A stretch of DNA of 64,000 nucleotides, taken from NCBI GenBank assembly GCA_964431315.1, contig CAYSJH010000008.1, positions 17,561 to 81,560 on the forward strand, given 5' to 3'. The position numbers and the translations under genes were made by a program. Each line of letters begins with the position of its first letter. Positions within the stretch are counted from its first letter, which is position 1. This document shows, one piece after another, positions 21,088 to 35,056 of this stretch. The stretch is from an uncultured Bacteroides sp. (lineage in GTDB: Bacteria > Bacteroidota > Bacteroidia > Bacteroidales > SM23-62). The notes below the pieces were generated by a model. That model had not been told where the DNA came from. It searched no databases and worked only from the letters and a program-made list of their open reading frames with translations.

Positions 21088-21531
21088 CTAAAATTGAATT
21101 TGAACTTTTGTTGATGTTATTTCTGTGAATTTCAGATCGAGGGATTCGGGTTTTGCTCCCTTTTTCCCTGCCGGCACTTCAAGCTGGATCCCTTCCCTGT
21201 CCGATTCCTTCAGTAACCCGAGAACCCGCCTCCCGTCAAGGAACTGCACGGAAACCATCCTGCCGATGTTCTTGATGTATTGTTCAGGAACACGGAAAGG
21301 GGCATCCAGTCCCGGGGACGAAACCTCCAGGGAAAAATCCTCCCTGTCGCGGTCGAGCCTTTCCCCGAGAGCTCGGCTGATCCTGGCACAATCCTCAATC
21401 GTTATCCCCTCCATCGTATCCACGTGCACAAGGATCCTGTTGCCGGGGTCTACCCGGATATCGACCTGGAAAATCCCCGTTCCACTTAGGACCTCCTGCA
21501 AAATGGCTTCCAATGTTGGCCTGTCAATCAT
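21088..21531 (-). CDS. rimP: Ribosome maturation factor RimP
   Basis: 147 aa, immediately upstream of nusA-infB in the canonical operon order. SSPGLDAPF motif. Confidence 0.9.
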   Translation of the reverse strand: MIDRPTLEAILQEVLSGTGIFQVDIRVDPGNRILVHVDTMEGITIEDCARISRALGERLDRDREDFSLEVSSPGLDAPFRVPEQYIKNIGRMVSVQFLDGRRVLGLLKESDREGIQLEVPAGKKGAKPESLDLKFTEITSTKVQIQF

Positions 21532-21546
21532 ATCAGTTTAATAAAA

Positions 21547-21566
21547 TAGGGGACTCGCGTCCCCTA
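21547..21566 (-). other. 8-bp stem / 4-nt loop hairpin 16 nt upstream of the rimP start
   Basis: TAGGGGAC-TCGC-GTCCCCTA. On the minus strand it is followed by TTTTAT. It could be a leader attenuator or terminator element, or the 3' end of a transcript coming from the palindromic element. Confidence 0.35.
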
Positions 21567-21611
21567 CATCATCCTGTAATCCGGGCGCAAATGTAATAAA
21601 AAACAATCACA

Positions 21612-21900
21612 TCTCAAAATTCCATGATTCTACTGCACCCAGGCTTTAATATTTGAATACCCTTGGTATCTTTTAAACCGGTGCTTCAAAATTTCCGTGT
21701 AATACCGAAGGCATTGTCAAATGAGTAACATACTTTTTGCCGCAGGCAAAAATCCGAGACGAATTGATAATGCCTGAGGTATGGAATTTTCACAGGCGCC
21801 TTGTTTAAAAATACCTCCGGCAATGATTTCAAATATTAAAGCCTGGGTTGGTATCACGGCCGATAATGATTACCTTAAGCTCGCTTATGGAATTTTGAGA
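21612..21900. repeat. Nested palindromic element, copy 1 (conserved core 21671-21812)
   Basis: The core is ~88% identical by hand alignment to 34470-34612. The central hairpin TTTTTGCC-GCA-GGCAAAAA lies at 21734-21752. Locus-specific perfect inverted repeats lie at 21637-21657/21828-21848 (21 bp) and 21612-21625/21887-21900 (14 bp). Confidence 0.9.
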
Positions 21901-23198
21901 TGAGACCCCCTCCGGCCAATAAGAAAAAAATCATCAATGACCCGGTTTACGGATTCATAAAAATCGCTTCAGAGGAACATTTTGACCTGATTGAACATCC
22001 TTATTTTCAGAGGCTTCGCAGGATTAAACAACTGGGACTCACGAATTTCGTCTACCCCGGGGCCACACACACCCGGTTCCAGCATGCCCTGGGAGCCTAT
22101 CATCTCATGGGACTGGCGATACAGGTGCTCCGGACAAAGGACATCGAAATCACACGGGAGGAAGAAGAAGCAGCGCTTGCGGCAATCCTGCTTCACGACA
22201 TTGGCCACGGTCCCTTTTCCCATGCCCTTGAAGGGAGCATCATTGAAGGCCTTCACCACGAAGAACTCTCGCTTCTTTTCATACATGCACTGAATGTTGA
22301 ATTCGGGGGACGGCTGAATCTTGCCATTGAGATCTTCACGGGAAGCTACCAGAAGAAATTCCTGCACCAGCTGATCGCGGGACAGCTCGATATGGACCGG
22401 CTGGATTACCTGAAAAGAGACAGCTTCTTTACCGGCGTTACAGAAGGAGTTATCGGCTCTGACCGGATCGTACGGATGCTGAATGTTGTCGATGACGACC
22501 TTGTGGTGGATCACAAGGGGATCTACTCCATTGAAAAGTTCCTGATTGCCAGGAGGTTGATGTACTGGCAGGTTTACCTGCACAAAACGGTGCTTGCCTC
22601 GGAGGTCCTGCTGGTGAACATCCTGAAGCGGGCCAGGATGCTCGCGATGAACGGTACTGGGTTATTCGCCACCCCGGCGCTTGGGCATTTTCTGAAATCG
22701 CTGGTGTCAAGGGAGGATTTCTACGGCGAGGATACCTTGCCCGGGATCATACCTGAGATCAGTCCCGCTTTATTAAAGAACCTGAACCTGTTTGCCAGCC
22801 TCGACGACAACGATATCATTGCCTCTGCCAAAGTCTGGTGCGATCATCCCGATAAAACCCTTTCCATCCTGAGTAAAGGCCTTATAAACAGATCCCTGTA
22901 TAAGATCGAGATCCGGAACGAGGAATTTTCACCAGAATATGTCCGGGAGATCCGGGAAGGGGTAAGCAGGCGTTACGGGCTGGCGGACGAGGACCTGGAA
23001 TTCCTGGTCCATCTGGGTTCGGTGAGCAACAATGCATACCGTTCGGAGGACGAACGGATCCGGATCCTCTACCACGGAGGAATTCTCAAAGACATCGCAG
23101 AAGCTTCCGATATGCTGGACCTGTCCGTTCTGTCAAGGACCGTGAAAAAAAATTTCCTGTGTTATCCCAAGGATGCCCTGGAAGCGGGCCCCGAATAA
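21900..23198 (+). CDS. HD-domain metal-dependent phosphohydrolase (dGTPase/SAMHD1-like superfamily)
   Basis: 432 aa. HD motifs HTRFQHALGAYH and LLHDIGHGPFSH, plus DRLDYLKRD. It is the first gene of a same-strand block with lpxD, lpxC/fabZ and lpxA. Confidence 0.85.
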   Translation: MRPPPANKKKIINDPVYGFIKIASEEHFDLIEHPYFQRLRRIKQLGLTNFVYPGATHTRFQHALGAYHLMGLAIQVLRTKDIEITREEEEAALAAILLHDIGHGPFSHALEGSIIEGLHHEELSLLFIHALNVEFGGRLNLAIEIFTGSYQKKFLHQLIAGQLDMDRLDYLKRDSFFTGVTEGVIGSDRIVRMLNVVDDDLVVDHKGIYSIEKFLIARRLMYWQVYLHKTVLASEVLLVNILKRARMLAMNGTGLFATPALGHFLKSLVSREDFYGEDTLPGIIPEISPALLKNLNLFASLDDNDIIASAKVWCDHPDKTLSILSKGLINRSLYKIEIRNEEFSPEYVREIREGVSRRYGLADEDLEFLVHLGSVSNNAYRSEDERIRILYHGGILKDIAEASDMLDLSVLSRTVKKNFLCYPKDALEAGPE

Positions 23199-33501: not shown

Positions 33502-34428
33502 TTGGAAAATTCACCTCAAAATACCCTGCGCATCAAGGAAAAAGCCCGTGAGCTGGGATTTCTTGATTGCGGTATTGCCCGTGCGGAATTTCTGGAAGAG
33601 GATGCGGCAAGGCTGGGGGACTGGCTTGACAGAGGCTTTCATGGCCGGATGGGATACATGGAAAACCATTTCGAAAAACGTACGGACCCGCGCAGGCTTG
33701 TCGAAGGCGTACGTTCAGTGATCGTGGTGCTTCAGAATTACCATACCGGCAGGAAACAGGACGACCCCGGGGCCCCGGTGCTTTCAAAATACGCCTACGG
33801 CAGGGATTACCATAAGATCATCCGCAAAAAGCTGAACCGGATGCTGAAATGGATGAATGGAGAGATCGCTCCCTCACCGGGCCGTGTTTTCGTCGATTCT
33901 GCCCCGGTCATGGAGAGGGCCTGGGGTGCGAAAGCGGGACTCGGATGGATCGGCAGGCATTCCCTCCTCCTGAACCGGAAATACGGGTCCTGGTTTTTCC
34001 TCGGGGTAATCCTCAGCGGACTGGAACTTGAACCGGACAGGCCGGTGAATGAGTATTGCGGGGACTGTACCCGTTGCATCGAGGCCTGTCCCACCGGCGC
34101 CATCCTTTCCGGCCGCACGGTCGATGCGACAAAGTGCATATCCTACCTGACCATAGAATTAAAAAACCAGCCCATCCCTCCCGGGTTCCGGGAGAAAATG
34201 CAAAACCGGGTATTCGGATGCGACATTTGTCAGGAGGTCTGTCCCTGGAGCAATAATGCCCACCCGCACAGCGAGGACTGGCTGAAACCCCGCCCGGGAC
34301 TGCTCGAGATGACCCGGGATGAATGGATGGCCCTGGATGAGCAGAAATTCAATCAGTTGTTCGAGGGGACAGCCCTTAAGCGTGCCGGATTCGCCAGCCT
34401 CCGCCGAAACCTCGACTTCCTGCAATGA
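33502..34428 (+). CDS. queG: tRNA epoxyqueuosine(34) reductase
   Basis: 308 aa. Two 4Fe-4S ferredoxin motifs (CGDCTRCIEACP, CDICQEVCPWSN) and the N-terminal QueG-like ELGFLDCGIA. The TTG start is the only start codon available in the ORF. Confidence 0.88.
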   Translation: MENSPQNTLRIKEKARELGFLDCGIARAEFLEEDAARLGDWLDRGFHGRMGYMENHFEKRTDPRRLVEGVRSVIVVLQNYHTGRKQDDPGAPVLSKYAYGRDYHKIIRKKLNRMLKWMNGEIAPSPGRVFVDSAPVMERAWGAKAGLGWIGRHSLLLNRKYGSWFFLGVILSGLELEPDRPVNEYCGDCTRCIEACPTGAILSGRTVDATKCISYLTIELKNQPIPPGFREKMQNRVFGCDICQEVCPWSNNAHPHSEDWLKPRPGLLEMTRDEWMALDEQKFNQLFEGTALKRAGFASLRRNLDFLQ

Positions 34429-34433
34429 CTCCG

Positions 34434-34649
34434 GCAAACCCTGCTGAAAATCCACATTTCCCCGGCATTTTTTAAACCGGCGCTTCAAAATTTCCGCGTA
34501 ATACCGATGGCATTGTCAAATGACGAGCCTACTTTTTGCCGCAGGCAAAAATACATGAGGAATTGACAATACCTGAGGTACGGAAATTTCCATAGGCGCC
34601 TTGTTTAAAAATGCCTAGGTCAGTTTTGTGGATTTTCAGCAGGGTTTGC
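34434..34649. repeat. Nested palindromic element, copy 2 (conserved core 34470-34612)
   Basis: The core matches 21671-21812. The central hairpin lies at 34533-34551. A 23-bp perfect outer inverted repeat, GCAAACCCTGCTGAAAATCCACA (34434-34456), pairs with its complement at 34627-34649. The element fills the queG/yjbQ convergent gap. Confidence 0.9.
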
Positions 34650-35056
34650 TACTCCGAACCGACAATGGTTACTACGATTCGTCGTGTTGAGCGGGGACCG
34701 TCAAACTCACAGAGAAAAATGTTCTGCCAGGTGGAGAGCCCGAGTTCACCATTGAGGATGGGGACGGTCTCGGAGGGCCCCACAAGGCCGGCCTTCAGAT
34801 GGGCATCCCCGTTGCTGTCCTGCGCATCATGCTCCCACACCCCCGGGGGAATGAGCTTTTGCAGAAGGTTTATCACATCGTTCTGCACGGACTGGTCCCA
34901 GTTCTCCTGGATCATGATCGCAGCTGTGGCCCCCTGCACATAGACCGATACTATTCCGTTCTGCACTCCGCTTTTCCTGACCGAATCCTTAACCTGCGTG
35001 GTAATGTCGTACAGGCCGTTCCGTTTATGGGTGCTTATTTGTATAATCTCCTGCAT
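34649..35056 (-). CDS. yjbQ: YjbQ/UPF0047 family protein (secondary thiamine-phosphate synthase-type)
   Basis: 135 aa. Family-typical blocks: GLYDIT, VYVQGATAAIMIQENWD, GDAHLKA and VPILNGELGLSTWQNIFLCEFDGPR. Confidence 0.85.
   Translation of the reverse strand: MQEIIQISTHKRNGLYDITTQVKDSVRKSGVQNGIVSVYVQGATAAIMIQENWDQSVQNDVINLLQKLIPPGVWEHDAQDSNGDAHLKAGLVGPSETVPILNGELGLSTWQNIFLCEFDGPRSTRRIVVTIVGSE

Follow-up and report, generated by a model that had tools for sequence, protein, structure and literature searches.

Why should a long palindrome occur twice among the housekeeping genes of one bacterium, each time closed by a perfect stem of different sequence? This is the question raised by a stretch of 64,000 nucleotides (the window) from an uncultured Bacteroides sp., contig CAYSJH010000008.1, in which the two copies, here called c1 and c2, lie in two intergenic spacers. 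Our answer is that they are members of a previously undescribed family of non-coding intergenic repeats, palindromic and around 195 bp long, of a few uncultured sediment Bacteroidota of one lineage; the family has no entry in Rfam and no description of it was found in the literature searched. It is a real and reproducible family, and in kind it is like the known bacterial palindromic repeats. Regarding the perfect stems, we favour, with a probability of around 55%, a repeat similar to MITEs (inverted-repeat transposable elements of miniature size), ERIC and REPINs, whose basal stem would have been homogenised, extended and inverted by template switching during replication.

The first copy lies between two divergent genes, rimP (21088-21531, - strand, of the rimP-nusA-infB operon) and a gene for an HD-domain protein (21900-23198, + strand), and the second one occupies all 220 nt of the spacer that separates queG (33502-34428, + strand) from yjbQ/UPF0047 (34649-35056, - strand), two genes in convergent arrangement. 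An earlier note, made from the sequence alone, had placed a common core of 142 nt at 21671-21812 and 34470-34612 and had counted 16 substitutions and one 1-nt indel, or about 88% identity. These values are exact (88.1%), and the core is also rightly described as centred on a conserved hairpin, TTTTTGCC-GCA-GGCAAAAA (21734-21752 and 34533-34551), next to which about half of the substitutions fall, namely 8/16 within 21725-21730 and 21754-21760. The homology, however, is not confined to the core, as it covers the full interior of 170 nt with 82.5% identity. This interior is exactly the distance between the arms of the perfect inverted repeats that the note had reported, of 21 bp in c1 (21637-21657/21828-21848) and 23 bp in c2 (34434-34456/34627-34649), which are the top two inverted repeats of the window. 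A further pair around c1, given as 14 bp, does exist, although its real size is 19 nt (21607-21625/21887-21905), with 18/19 positions complementary. The parts of both copies are listed below; c3, c4 and the L-numbers denote copies or contigs from related genomes or assemblies.

21607-21625, no strand: left arm of the outermost 19-nt repeat of c1, non-contiguous, overlapping the -33 TTTG of a candidate rimP promoter
21637-21848, + strand: arms and interior of c1 (covariance-model match 21628-21855, + strand, 220.9 bits)
21637-21657, no strand: left outer arm of c1, ACCCAGGC followed by TTTAATATTTGAA, one side of the perfect 21-bp inverted repeat; its 8 outermost nt form a GC clamp specific to the locus, followed by 13 nt of a degenerate terminal repeat
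21658-21827, + strand: interior of c1, an imperfect palindrome of 170 nt
21672-21697, + strand: left-type arm block of c1, TTTAAACCGGTGCTTCAAAATTTCCG, a 26-mer that is the same in c1, c2 and L140 save one Y and has few substitutions in the other copies
21734-21752, + strand: central hairpin of c1
21794-21809, + strand: right-type arm block of c1, AGGCGCCTTGTTTAAA, the same in c1, c2, L140, L162 and L164 and with 1-4 substitutions in c3, c4, L169 and L170
21828-21848, no strand: right outer arm of c1, TTCAAATATTAAA followed by GCCTGGGT, adjoining the conserved flank TTGGTATCACGG
21887-21905, no strand: right arm of the outermost 19-nt repeat of c1, containing the ATG of the HD-domain gene (21900)
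34434-34649, + strand: arms and interior of c2 (covariance-model match 34427-34653, + strand, 250.3 bits)
34434-34443, no strand: left arm extension of c2, GCAAACCCTG, locus-specific, probably the ancestral 3' flank of queG
34444-34456, no strand: left terminal repeat of c2, CTGAAAATCCACA, a motif common to L140, c3 and c4
34457-34626, + strand: interior of c2, 170 nt; the arm blocks span 34471-34496 and 34594-34609, with the hairpin in the centre (34533-34551)
34627-34639, no strand: right terminal repeat of c2, TGTGGATTTTCAG
34640-34649, no strand: right arm extension of c2, CAGGGTTTGC, probably copied in inverted form from the left flank; its final base is the first base of the yjbQ stop codon (CTA on the + strand)

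Both hairpins fold far better than expected by chance. Folded as RNA, the whole hairpins lie at z = -9.6 and -9.8 relative to dinucleotide shuffles, and the 170-nt interior folded as single-stranded DNA at z = -4.7 (+ strand) and -6.2 (- strand), so that the folding is equally good on both strands. There is no third copy in the window. The remainder of the window consists of housekeeping genes, and among its 46 open reading frames (ORFs) there is no transposase, recombinase or RAYT, in agreement with the earlier remark that a transposase is lacking there. No Rfam family matched the window at the gathering score, and at E<=10 there were only chance matches, the best of them (E=0.81) to a plant miRNA precursor.

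We found seven additional copies in relatives, which brings the total to nine:

L140: immediately behind queG, in a species whose QueG is 81% identical
c3 (L145/L151/L161): upstream of purL, in another genome
L162, L164/L165 and L170: in the orthologous rimP-HD spacer, with HD proteins 90%, 80% and 78% identical, respectively
c4 (L167/L168): between sodA and a peptidase M19 gene
L169: on a contig beginning inside the element, probably a separate locus

A covariance model built on four copies recovered all of them and nothing else in ~400 kb of related sequence. The third locus, c3, was the one true new locus among 17 matches of a metagenome scan with the pattern GGCGCTTCAAAATTTCCGT, made to skip c1 and c2, in a collection apparently without the Ga0599xxx samples of the source organism, and scans of viral contigs with the arm patterns gave nothing real. 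The copies c4 and L169 were located by a protein-database search with a spurious peptide predicted from the element; a full HMMER pass with this peptide gave no copies beyond these two, and therefore the family is rare in public data. The element itself is not coding, because stops break all six frames and no frame is kept across copies. The peptides called from it are spurious ORFs: a 46-aa 'hypothetical protein' (P0243; 21717-21857, - strand; 41 contigs) lies wholly inside c1, and similar calls come from c4 (55 aa) and L169 (30 aa).

The central hairpin is no guide to the family. A scan of genome contigs with its 19-mer TTTTTGCCGCAGGCAAAAA returned at least 119 loci, none of them with the core, and the unrelated genomes that contain the exact 19-mer number more than 119, among them Clostridia, Lentisphaerae, Treponema and Akkermansia; it is a generic terminator-like sequence of many phyla. 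Several contigs have two or three occurrences of it at distances of 100-200 nt, and this suggests that further families of repeats or terminators share the hairpin. Two of the contigs with true copies, L162 (1-40) and L169 (100-182), come from different samples, both start inside the element and have an unusual left arm, TCATTATTGAAGCGGCGCTGC, in common. Their flanks are incompatible, so that either the assembly is chimeric at the repeat or there are two loci whose interiors are nearly the same.

All full copies share one anatomy. The interior measures 169-171 nt and contains two arm blocks, TTTAAACCGGCGCTTCAAAATTTCCG and AGGCGCCTTGTTTAAA, which are strongly conserved but differ from each other, on either side of a hairpin centre that varies more and of which L140 and L170 have compensated variants (ATTCTGCC-CTA-GGCAGAAT and TTTTGAGCC-TACC-GGCGCAAAA). 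The outer repeats had been taken as unrelated between the two loci. This is true for the outermost 0-13 nt, the only locus-specific part of each perfect stem, whereas the inner 10-13 nt are homologous across copies (CTGAAAATCCACA, CTGAAAACCCACA, CTGAAAAATTCACC, GTAAAATCCACC, TTTAATATTTGAA, GGAATATTCGA, TAATTTGCAT) and form terminal inverted repeats with the degenerate motif (G)WAAAATYYRM at both ends.

The best conserved parts are short self-complementary hexamers, found in both arms in 9/9 copies, and in four species the element lies upstream of the rimP-nusA-infB promoter. An architectural or regulatory site in double-stranded DNA could have this appearance, with TTTAAA, GGCGCC, AAATTT and TTGTCAA/TTGACAA as palindromic half-sites to which a dimeric or nucleoid-associated protein would bind; the capacity to form a hairpin would then be incidental. 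Nevertheless, such a site leaves unexplained the compensatory evolution of the variable centre and of the outer arms, as well as the fixed 170-nt interior and the placement at 3'-ends, and no regulator is linked to it. We consider it very unlikely.

The family has reached several unrelated intergenic sites and has then been kept there by vertical descent. At least four non-homologous sites are occupied (the rimP-HD spacer, the 3'-end of queG, upstream of purL and the 3'-end of sodA), L169 being probably the fifth, between divergent, convergent and tandem gene pairs and in either orientation relative to the neighbours; many copies lie directly at the 3'-ends of genes. The rimP-HD element is found in the same orientation in four species and the one at the 3'-end of queG in two. 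Furthermore, empty queG sites exist in relatives: the spacer has only 14 nt in L141, where the neighbours are still queG and yjbQ, 5 nt in L142 and 10 nt in L171, and none of them contains a hairpin.

These empty sites bear directly on one of the readings offered by the earlier note, in which a mobile palindromic unit, in the manner of elements that target ssDNA hairpins, enters the loops of pre-existing hairpins; the outer repeats would then be the old targets. At first sight this would agree with L163 (HD protein 85% identical), whose rimP-HD site consists of the outer stem closed by a short loop and nothing more, and with c4, which lies right beside a classic terminator hairpin. However, insertion into a pre-existing hairpin is ruled out at queG, since the empty sites are hairpin-free. 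The reverse complement of the L163 loop agrees with the interior's right end at 15/16 nt, and therefore L163 is a deletion remnant, flipped, rather than an unoccupied target. The arm of L140 holds the stop and the last codons of queG, and thus it was copied from the flank, and c4 adjoins the terminator and does not lie in its loop. This reading is largely refuted and we regard it as extremely improbable. The terminator in question is a textbook intrinsic terminator of sodA (L167 1815-1850: GGGTTGCCG-GCAA-CGGCAGCCC, followed by T8), and c4 follows it directly, beside it and not within it.

Regarding conservation, the interior is 80% and 72% identical between the window and L164 and L170, respectively; the HD coding sequence reaches 76% and 73%, the outer arms 62% and 36% and the right flank 74% and 50%. 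The interior thus stays near the identity of coding sequence while the arms and the flank change faster, which means that the interior is constrained, and that in the arms it is the complementarity and not the sequence that is constrained. The source organism is present in ~50 metagenomes of the Joint Genome Institute, and in 20 contigs of the same population (10 + 10) c1 and c2 are 99.5-100% identical and in a single orientation, with no strain-level empty site among them. A GT to TA dinucleotide variant of c1 at 21681-21682, in 4/10 assemblies (L133, L134, L135 and L139), weakens the pairing, and a G to A change at 21798 in one assembly (L138) turns a c1-specific T.G into T-A; both are paired positions of one stem. 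Between L164 and L165, two ENA assemblies of one species, there is also a G to A change at ~5250 of L165 (GGCAAAAA to GACAAAAA) that breaks one G-C pair of the central hairpin.

That the arms keep their complementarity can be seen from the orthologous sites. In the alignment of the nine sequences 92% of the cells are paired and 31 of the 79 pairs have changed on both sides, a number that none of 500 shuffles reached and that slid controls (3-11 pairs) did not approach. The outer arms are Watson-Crick paired at 21/21, 23/23, 22/23, 20/20, 17/18 and 12/12 positions, without a single wobble pair over ~115 pairs. At queG, c2 has AAACCCT/AGGGTTT where L140 has TCTCCCC/GGGGAGA. At rimP-HD, c1 has GCCTGGG, L164 GGCGGGG and L163 GCCGGGG; the GC clamp of c1 is replaced by CCCCGCCG in L164 and CCCCGGCT in L163, and the partner arm mirrors each change. 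These mirrored changes include double transversions, C-G to A-T and G-C to C-G, for which no path leads through a G.U wobble intermediate. In the inner helices there are 24 cells with G.U and 12 with A.C, 9 of the G.U coming from one invariant T.G pair, without which G.U barely exceeds A.C. Arms with Watson-Crick pairs only, mirrored changes, no clear wobble bias and equal folding of both strands, together with the arm extensions described below, point to a templated process at the DNA level rather than to selection on RNA.

The alternative is a structured RNA of the host, either non-coding or part of an untranslated region (UTR), with selection on the RNA pairing and arm blocks bound by a protein or processed, for example by RNase III on a stem of at least 20 bp. 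The strong covariation agrees with this, as do orthologous interiors conserved at about the level of coding sequence, the invariant T.G pair and conserved internal loops, the 21798 variant that converts T.G into T-A, and the many copies right at gene 3'-ends. On the other hand, we found neither a promoter nor a terminator belonging to the element, which relative to queG lies in either orientation, is placed between divergent, convergent or tandem neighbours, has outer arms free of wobble with compensated transversions, and apart from one pair shows G.U about as often as A.C, with both strands folding equally. Taken together, Watson-Crick-only arms, transversions, folding of both strands and either orientation fit a DNA palindrome better than a dedicated RNA gene, and so we judge a structured RNA to be unlikely, although co-transcription of the element in UTRs is possible. 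A 6S-like RNA had also been suggested. The pairing that this suggestion required is there, but the element is neither 6S RNA nor any other Rfam family, without a match even at E<=10.

The queG locus shows where new arm sequence may come from. The palindrome of L140 runs past its perfect 20 bp as GCAATAAC, which is made of the final codons and the stop of queG, and its inverted copy provides the stop codon of the downstream gene. Thus, one arm was copied from the other, and the palindrome appears to have rewritten the 3'-end of a neighbour: the last residues of the 750-aa downstream gene (..K-Q-stop; L140 1262-1275) lie inside the inverted copy of the queG end (CTGCAATAA). In c2 the left extension can be compared with the 14-nt spacer of the empty site in L141 (CACGGTATCCCCTGCTA versus CTCCGGCAAACCCTGCTG), where 12/18 positions agree, including the 7-mer CCCTGCT; from this resemblance we infer that the left arm is original and the right arm is the copy. 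The extensions range from 0 nt in c4 and L170 to 13 nt in L140, and L170, the most distant orthologue, has no GC clamp.

At the same locus the interior itself changes direction. The covariance model places c2 on the + strand (250 bits) and L140 on the - strand (204 bits), although in both queG lies on the + strand and the proximal arm is colinear, so that on sequence grounds the interior of L140 reads as inverted relative to c2. Could the element then be a programmed switch (an inverton), in which a recombinase flips the 170-bp interior and alters the expression of a neighbour? A segment of fixed length bracketed by perfect 21-23-bp inverted repeats, inverted between related species at queG and also in the remnant of L163, would suit such a switch, and invertons are reportedly frequent in Bacteroidota (Jiang et al. 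2019, Science). However, a single orientation is found in the 10 + 10 assemblies of the window population and in the replicate assemblies of c3, c4 and L164/L165 (~27 in total), the arms differ between loci of one genome whereas invertase sites are normally conserved, and the window has no recombinase. At two of the sites the flanking genes are convergent, which leaves a promoter switch with no obvious target, and no promoter of the Bacteroidota type (TTTG...TAnnTTTG) is conserved inside the interior in the aligned copies, which were read by eye; a search by eye for TTTG-N19-TAnnTTTG inside the element gave only near-misses, AAATTTTG in the arm and TATTTTTG in c2 only, none of them conserved. 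An inverton is therefore, in our opinion, highly improbable.

We return to template switching, which at quasi-palindromes is said to go back to Ripley (1982) and to the Lovett laboratory. In this mechanism the long palindrome would fold back and the replicating polymerase would switch template between the arms. Such a switch would overwrite one arm with the complement of the other, so that the basal stem stays perfect; it could make the stem grow outward, with one flank copied in inverted form, and now and then it might flip the entire 170-nt interior. The perfect locus-specific outer arms would then be a by-product of replication, neither recognition sites nor pre-existing target hairpins, while selection, for a host function or for spread, would preserve the conserved asymmetries of the interior. 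Most likely the element would be transcribed together with its neighbours and form, in their UTRs, a long hairpin by which the ends of transcripts are marked or stabilised, by analogy with the ERIC and Correia repeats. Homogenisation of arms, their expansion and the inversion of a spacer or loop are described outcomes of template switching (PMC8604942, PMC5941160, PMC8794818, PMC13100816), which has also been proposed as a source of perfect stems and compensatory double changes (PMC8794818). The products expected from it are found here, namely perfect arms, mirrored multi-nucleotide differences between orthologues, extensions copied from the flank and an inverted spacer, from which the process itself is deduced.

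Several points weigh against this reading. The switching is deduced from end states, with no single event placed on a tree, and recombination between the arms, RecA-mediated or site-specific, would yield the same homogenisation and the same flip of the interior. The natural spacer inversions published so far are a few nucleotides long, compared with 170 here. The L140 interior is 65-71% identical to the others, and hence it may represent another subfamily that inserted there independently, and not an inversion. Interior identities also cross loci, as L162 is 95% identical to c2 and 89% to c1, and L164 is closest to c3 (91%); interiors that do not follow the orthology of their loci imply ectopic conversion, replacement or a faster decay of c1. 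The sparing of the conserved interior mismatches from homogenisation is accounted for by assumed selection alone, and the role of the hairpin in UTRs is proposed by analogy alone. Finally, no copy has a direct target-site duplication, the window has no transposase, and the evidence base is nine copies.

A bolder idea is that of a 'self-perfecting' palindromic DNA, which would persist, and possibly spread, by fold-back template switching independent of any transposase, or else a programmed invertible module with locus-specific arms. We find this quite unlikely. If the fold-back form of it were true, it would mean inverted instead of direct flank duplications, neighbouring genes whose ends are overwritten (L140 and its stop codon being the example) and flips of a 170-bp interior.

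Some neighbouring features of c1 deserve a mention. In the rimP leader, just upstream of the start codon, there is a terminator-like hairpin, GTAGGGGACGCGAGTCCCCTAT followed by TTTATT (21546-21567, - strand), with a T-rich tail to ~21536. Its sequence is nearly unchanged in L163, L164 and L170; for the rimP-nusA-infB operon it is a candidate attenuator in the leader. The candidate rimP promoter, of the Bacteroidota type and on the - strand, consists of TTTG (21618-21615), 19 nt and TACATTTG (21595-21588). To the right of c1, the block TTGGTATCACGGCCGATAATGATTACCTT (21849-21880) is kept in all five rimP-HD orthologues, including L163, which has no core, and is looser in L170; this block probably serves the HD gene as promoter or 5' UTR.

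The family adds a Bacteroidota example to the palindromic intergenic repeats represented by ERIC, Correia and REPIN. It is also a natural case study, with orthologues in four to five genomes in which the base of the stem stays perfectly complementary despite the turnover of its sequence, with a stem that grows into the flanking DNA, including the stop codon of a neighbour, and with a 170-nt interior in both orientations. The loci would permit an event-by-event test of the origin of perfect stems by template switching (PMC8794818). Moreover, such elements in practice break assemblies (two contigs here begin inside the element) and create spurious ORF calls such as the 46-aa protein of c1.

In comparison with known systems, the invertons of Bacteroidota are found in the same phylum and have inverted repeats of 10-30 bp around a segment of 100-300 bp whose orientation differs between relatives, and here too a segment bracketed by inverted repeats is inverted between genomes (c2 on +, L140 on -, and the L163 remnant). 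Unlike them, the two orientations do not coexist, either in the 20 assemblies of the window population or in the replicates of c3, c4 and L164/L165, the repeats are not kept across loci, and there is no internal promoter and no invertase nearby. As to PATEs, which derive from IS200/IS605 and insert 3' of a fixed tetra- or pentanucleotide, the left flanks of our copies differ (..CCCTG, ..TTTTTTTT, ..CTTCC, ..ACTGC), and the structure is one long palindrome with terminal repeats instead of subterminal hairpins. The products of template switching at quasi-palindromes share with the present family the perfect arms, the mirrored multi-nucleotide changes, the expansion of arms into the flank and the inversion of a spacer; nevertheless, they are the outcome of a mutational process and not an element family, and here the inverted segment has ~170 nt and is itself a hairpin.

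REPINs are doublets of REP sequences that form hairpins and are moved by RAYT transposases (PMC3116915). As in our family, two conserved inverted units surround a spacer that keeps its length and its capacity to form a hairpin but not its sequence, with frequent compensatory changes, and the elements are intergenic, persist for long and leave decayed remnants (PMC3116915); correspondingly, near-invariant inverted arm blocks stand here around a variable centre that keeps its hairpin by compensatory change. The GTAG/CGTC tag of REP sequences (PMC3733652), unlike these features, is not general: GTAG precedes GGCGCC, as GTAGGCGCC, in c3 and L140 only, and the other copies have CATAG, CACAG, GTTAG or GGCAG. 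The units of ~26 and 16 nt, in an interior of 170 nt, also make a much longer element than a REPIN, and there is no RAYT in the window.

The Correia elements (NEMIS) of Neisseria, with copies in the hundreds, end in conserved terminal repeats of 26 bp, have a TA duplication and an IHF site besides, and are co-transcribed with their neighbours. According to De Gregorio et al., their stem is reportedly a substrate of RNase III. Our family is of a similar size class and has terminal inverted repeats that form a long stem, and co-transcription may be supposed by analogy; it differs from them in its degenerate termini, in the locus-specific part of its perfect stem and in the few copies known.

The MITE-like or PATE-like element proposed by the earlier note comes nearest to the evidence in its MITE part. 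As in MITEs, the copies share terminal inverted repeats and are inserted at non-homologous sites, at least four, that are empty in relatives. What does not agree is that no direct target-site duplication is found at c1, c3, c4, L140 or L164, that no partner transposase with matching termini is present in the window, and that the orthologous sites are stable. Two apparent repeats at the ends were discarded. The ACTCCG around c2 has counterparts on both sides in the empty site of L141 (ACACGG and ACCCCG) and hence it is older than the insertion, and the resemblance between CCGATAATGATTAC, to the right of c1, and CCGACAATGGTTAC, to the right of c2, is taken as a coincidence, the latter being yjbQ coding sequence that is different in L141. 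ERIC (or IRU) sequences and the enterobacterial repeat units (RU-1 of 127 bp and RU-2 of 168 bp) are counted among the bacterial MITEs (PMC3184786, PMC2759123). They belong to another phylum, and ERIC have terminal repeats, target duplications and a flanking TA (PMC3184786), whereas here we find an inverted copy of one flank. Set side by side by description, however, ERIC and the repeat units are like the present family in being imperfect palindromes of 100-200 bp, non-coding and strictly intergenic, which form one long hairpin, lie often at the 3'-ends of genes, are present or absent at orthologous sites and can be low in copy number.

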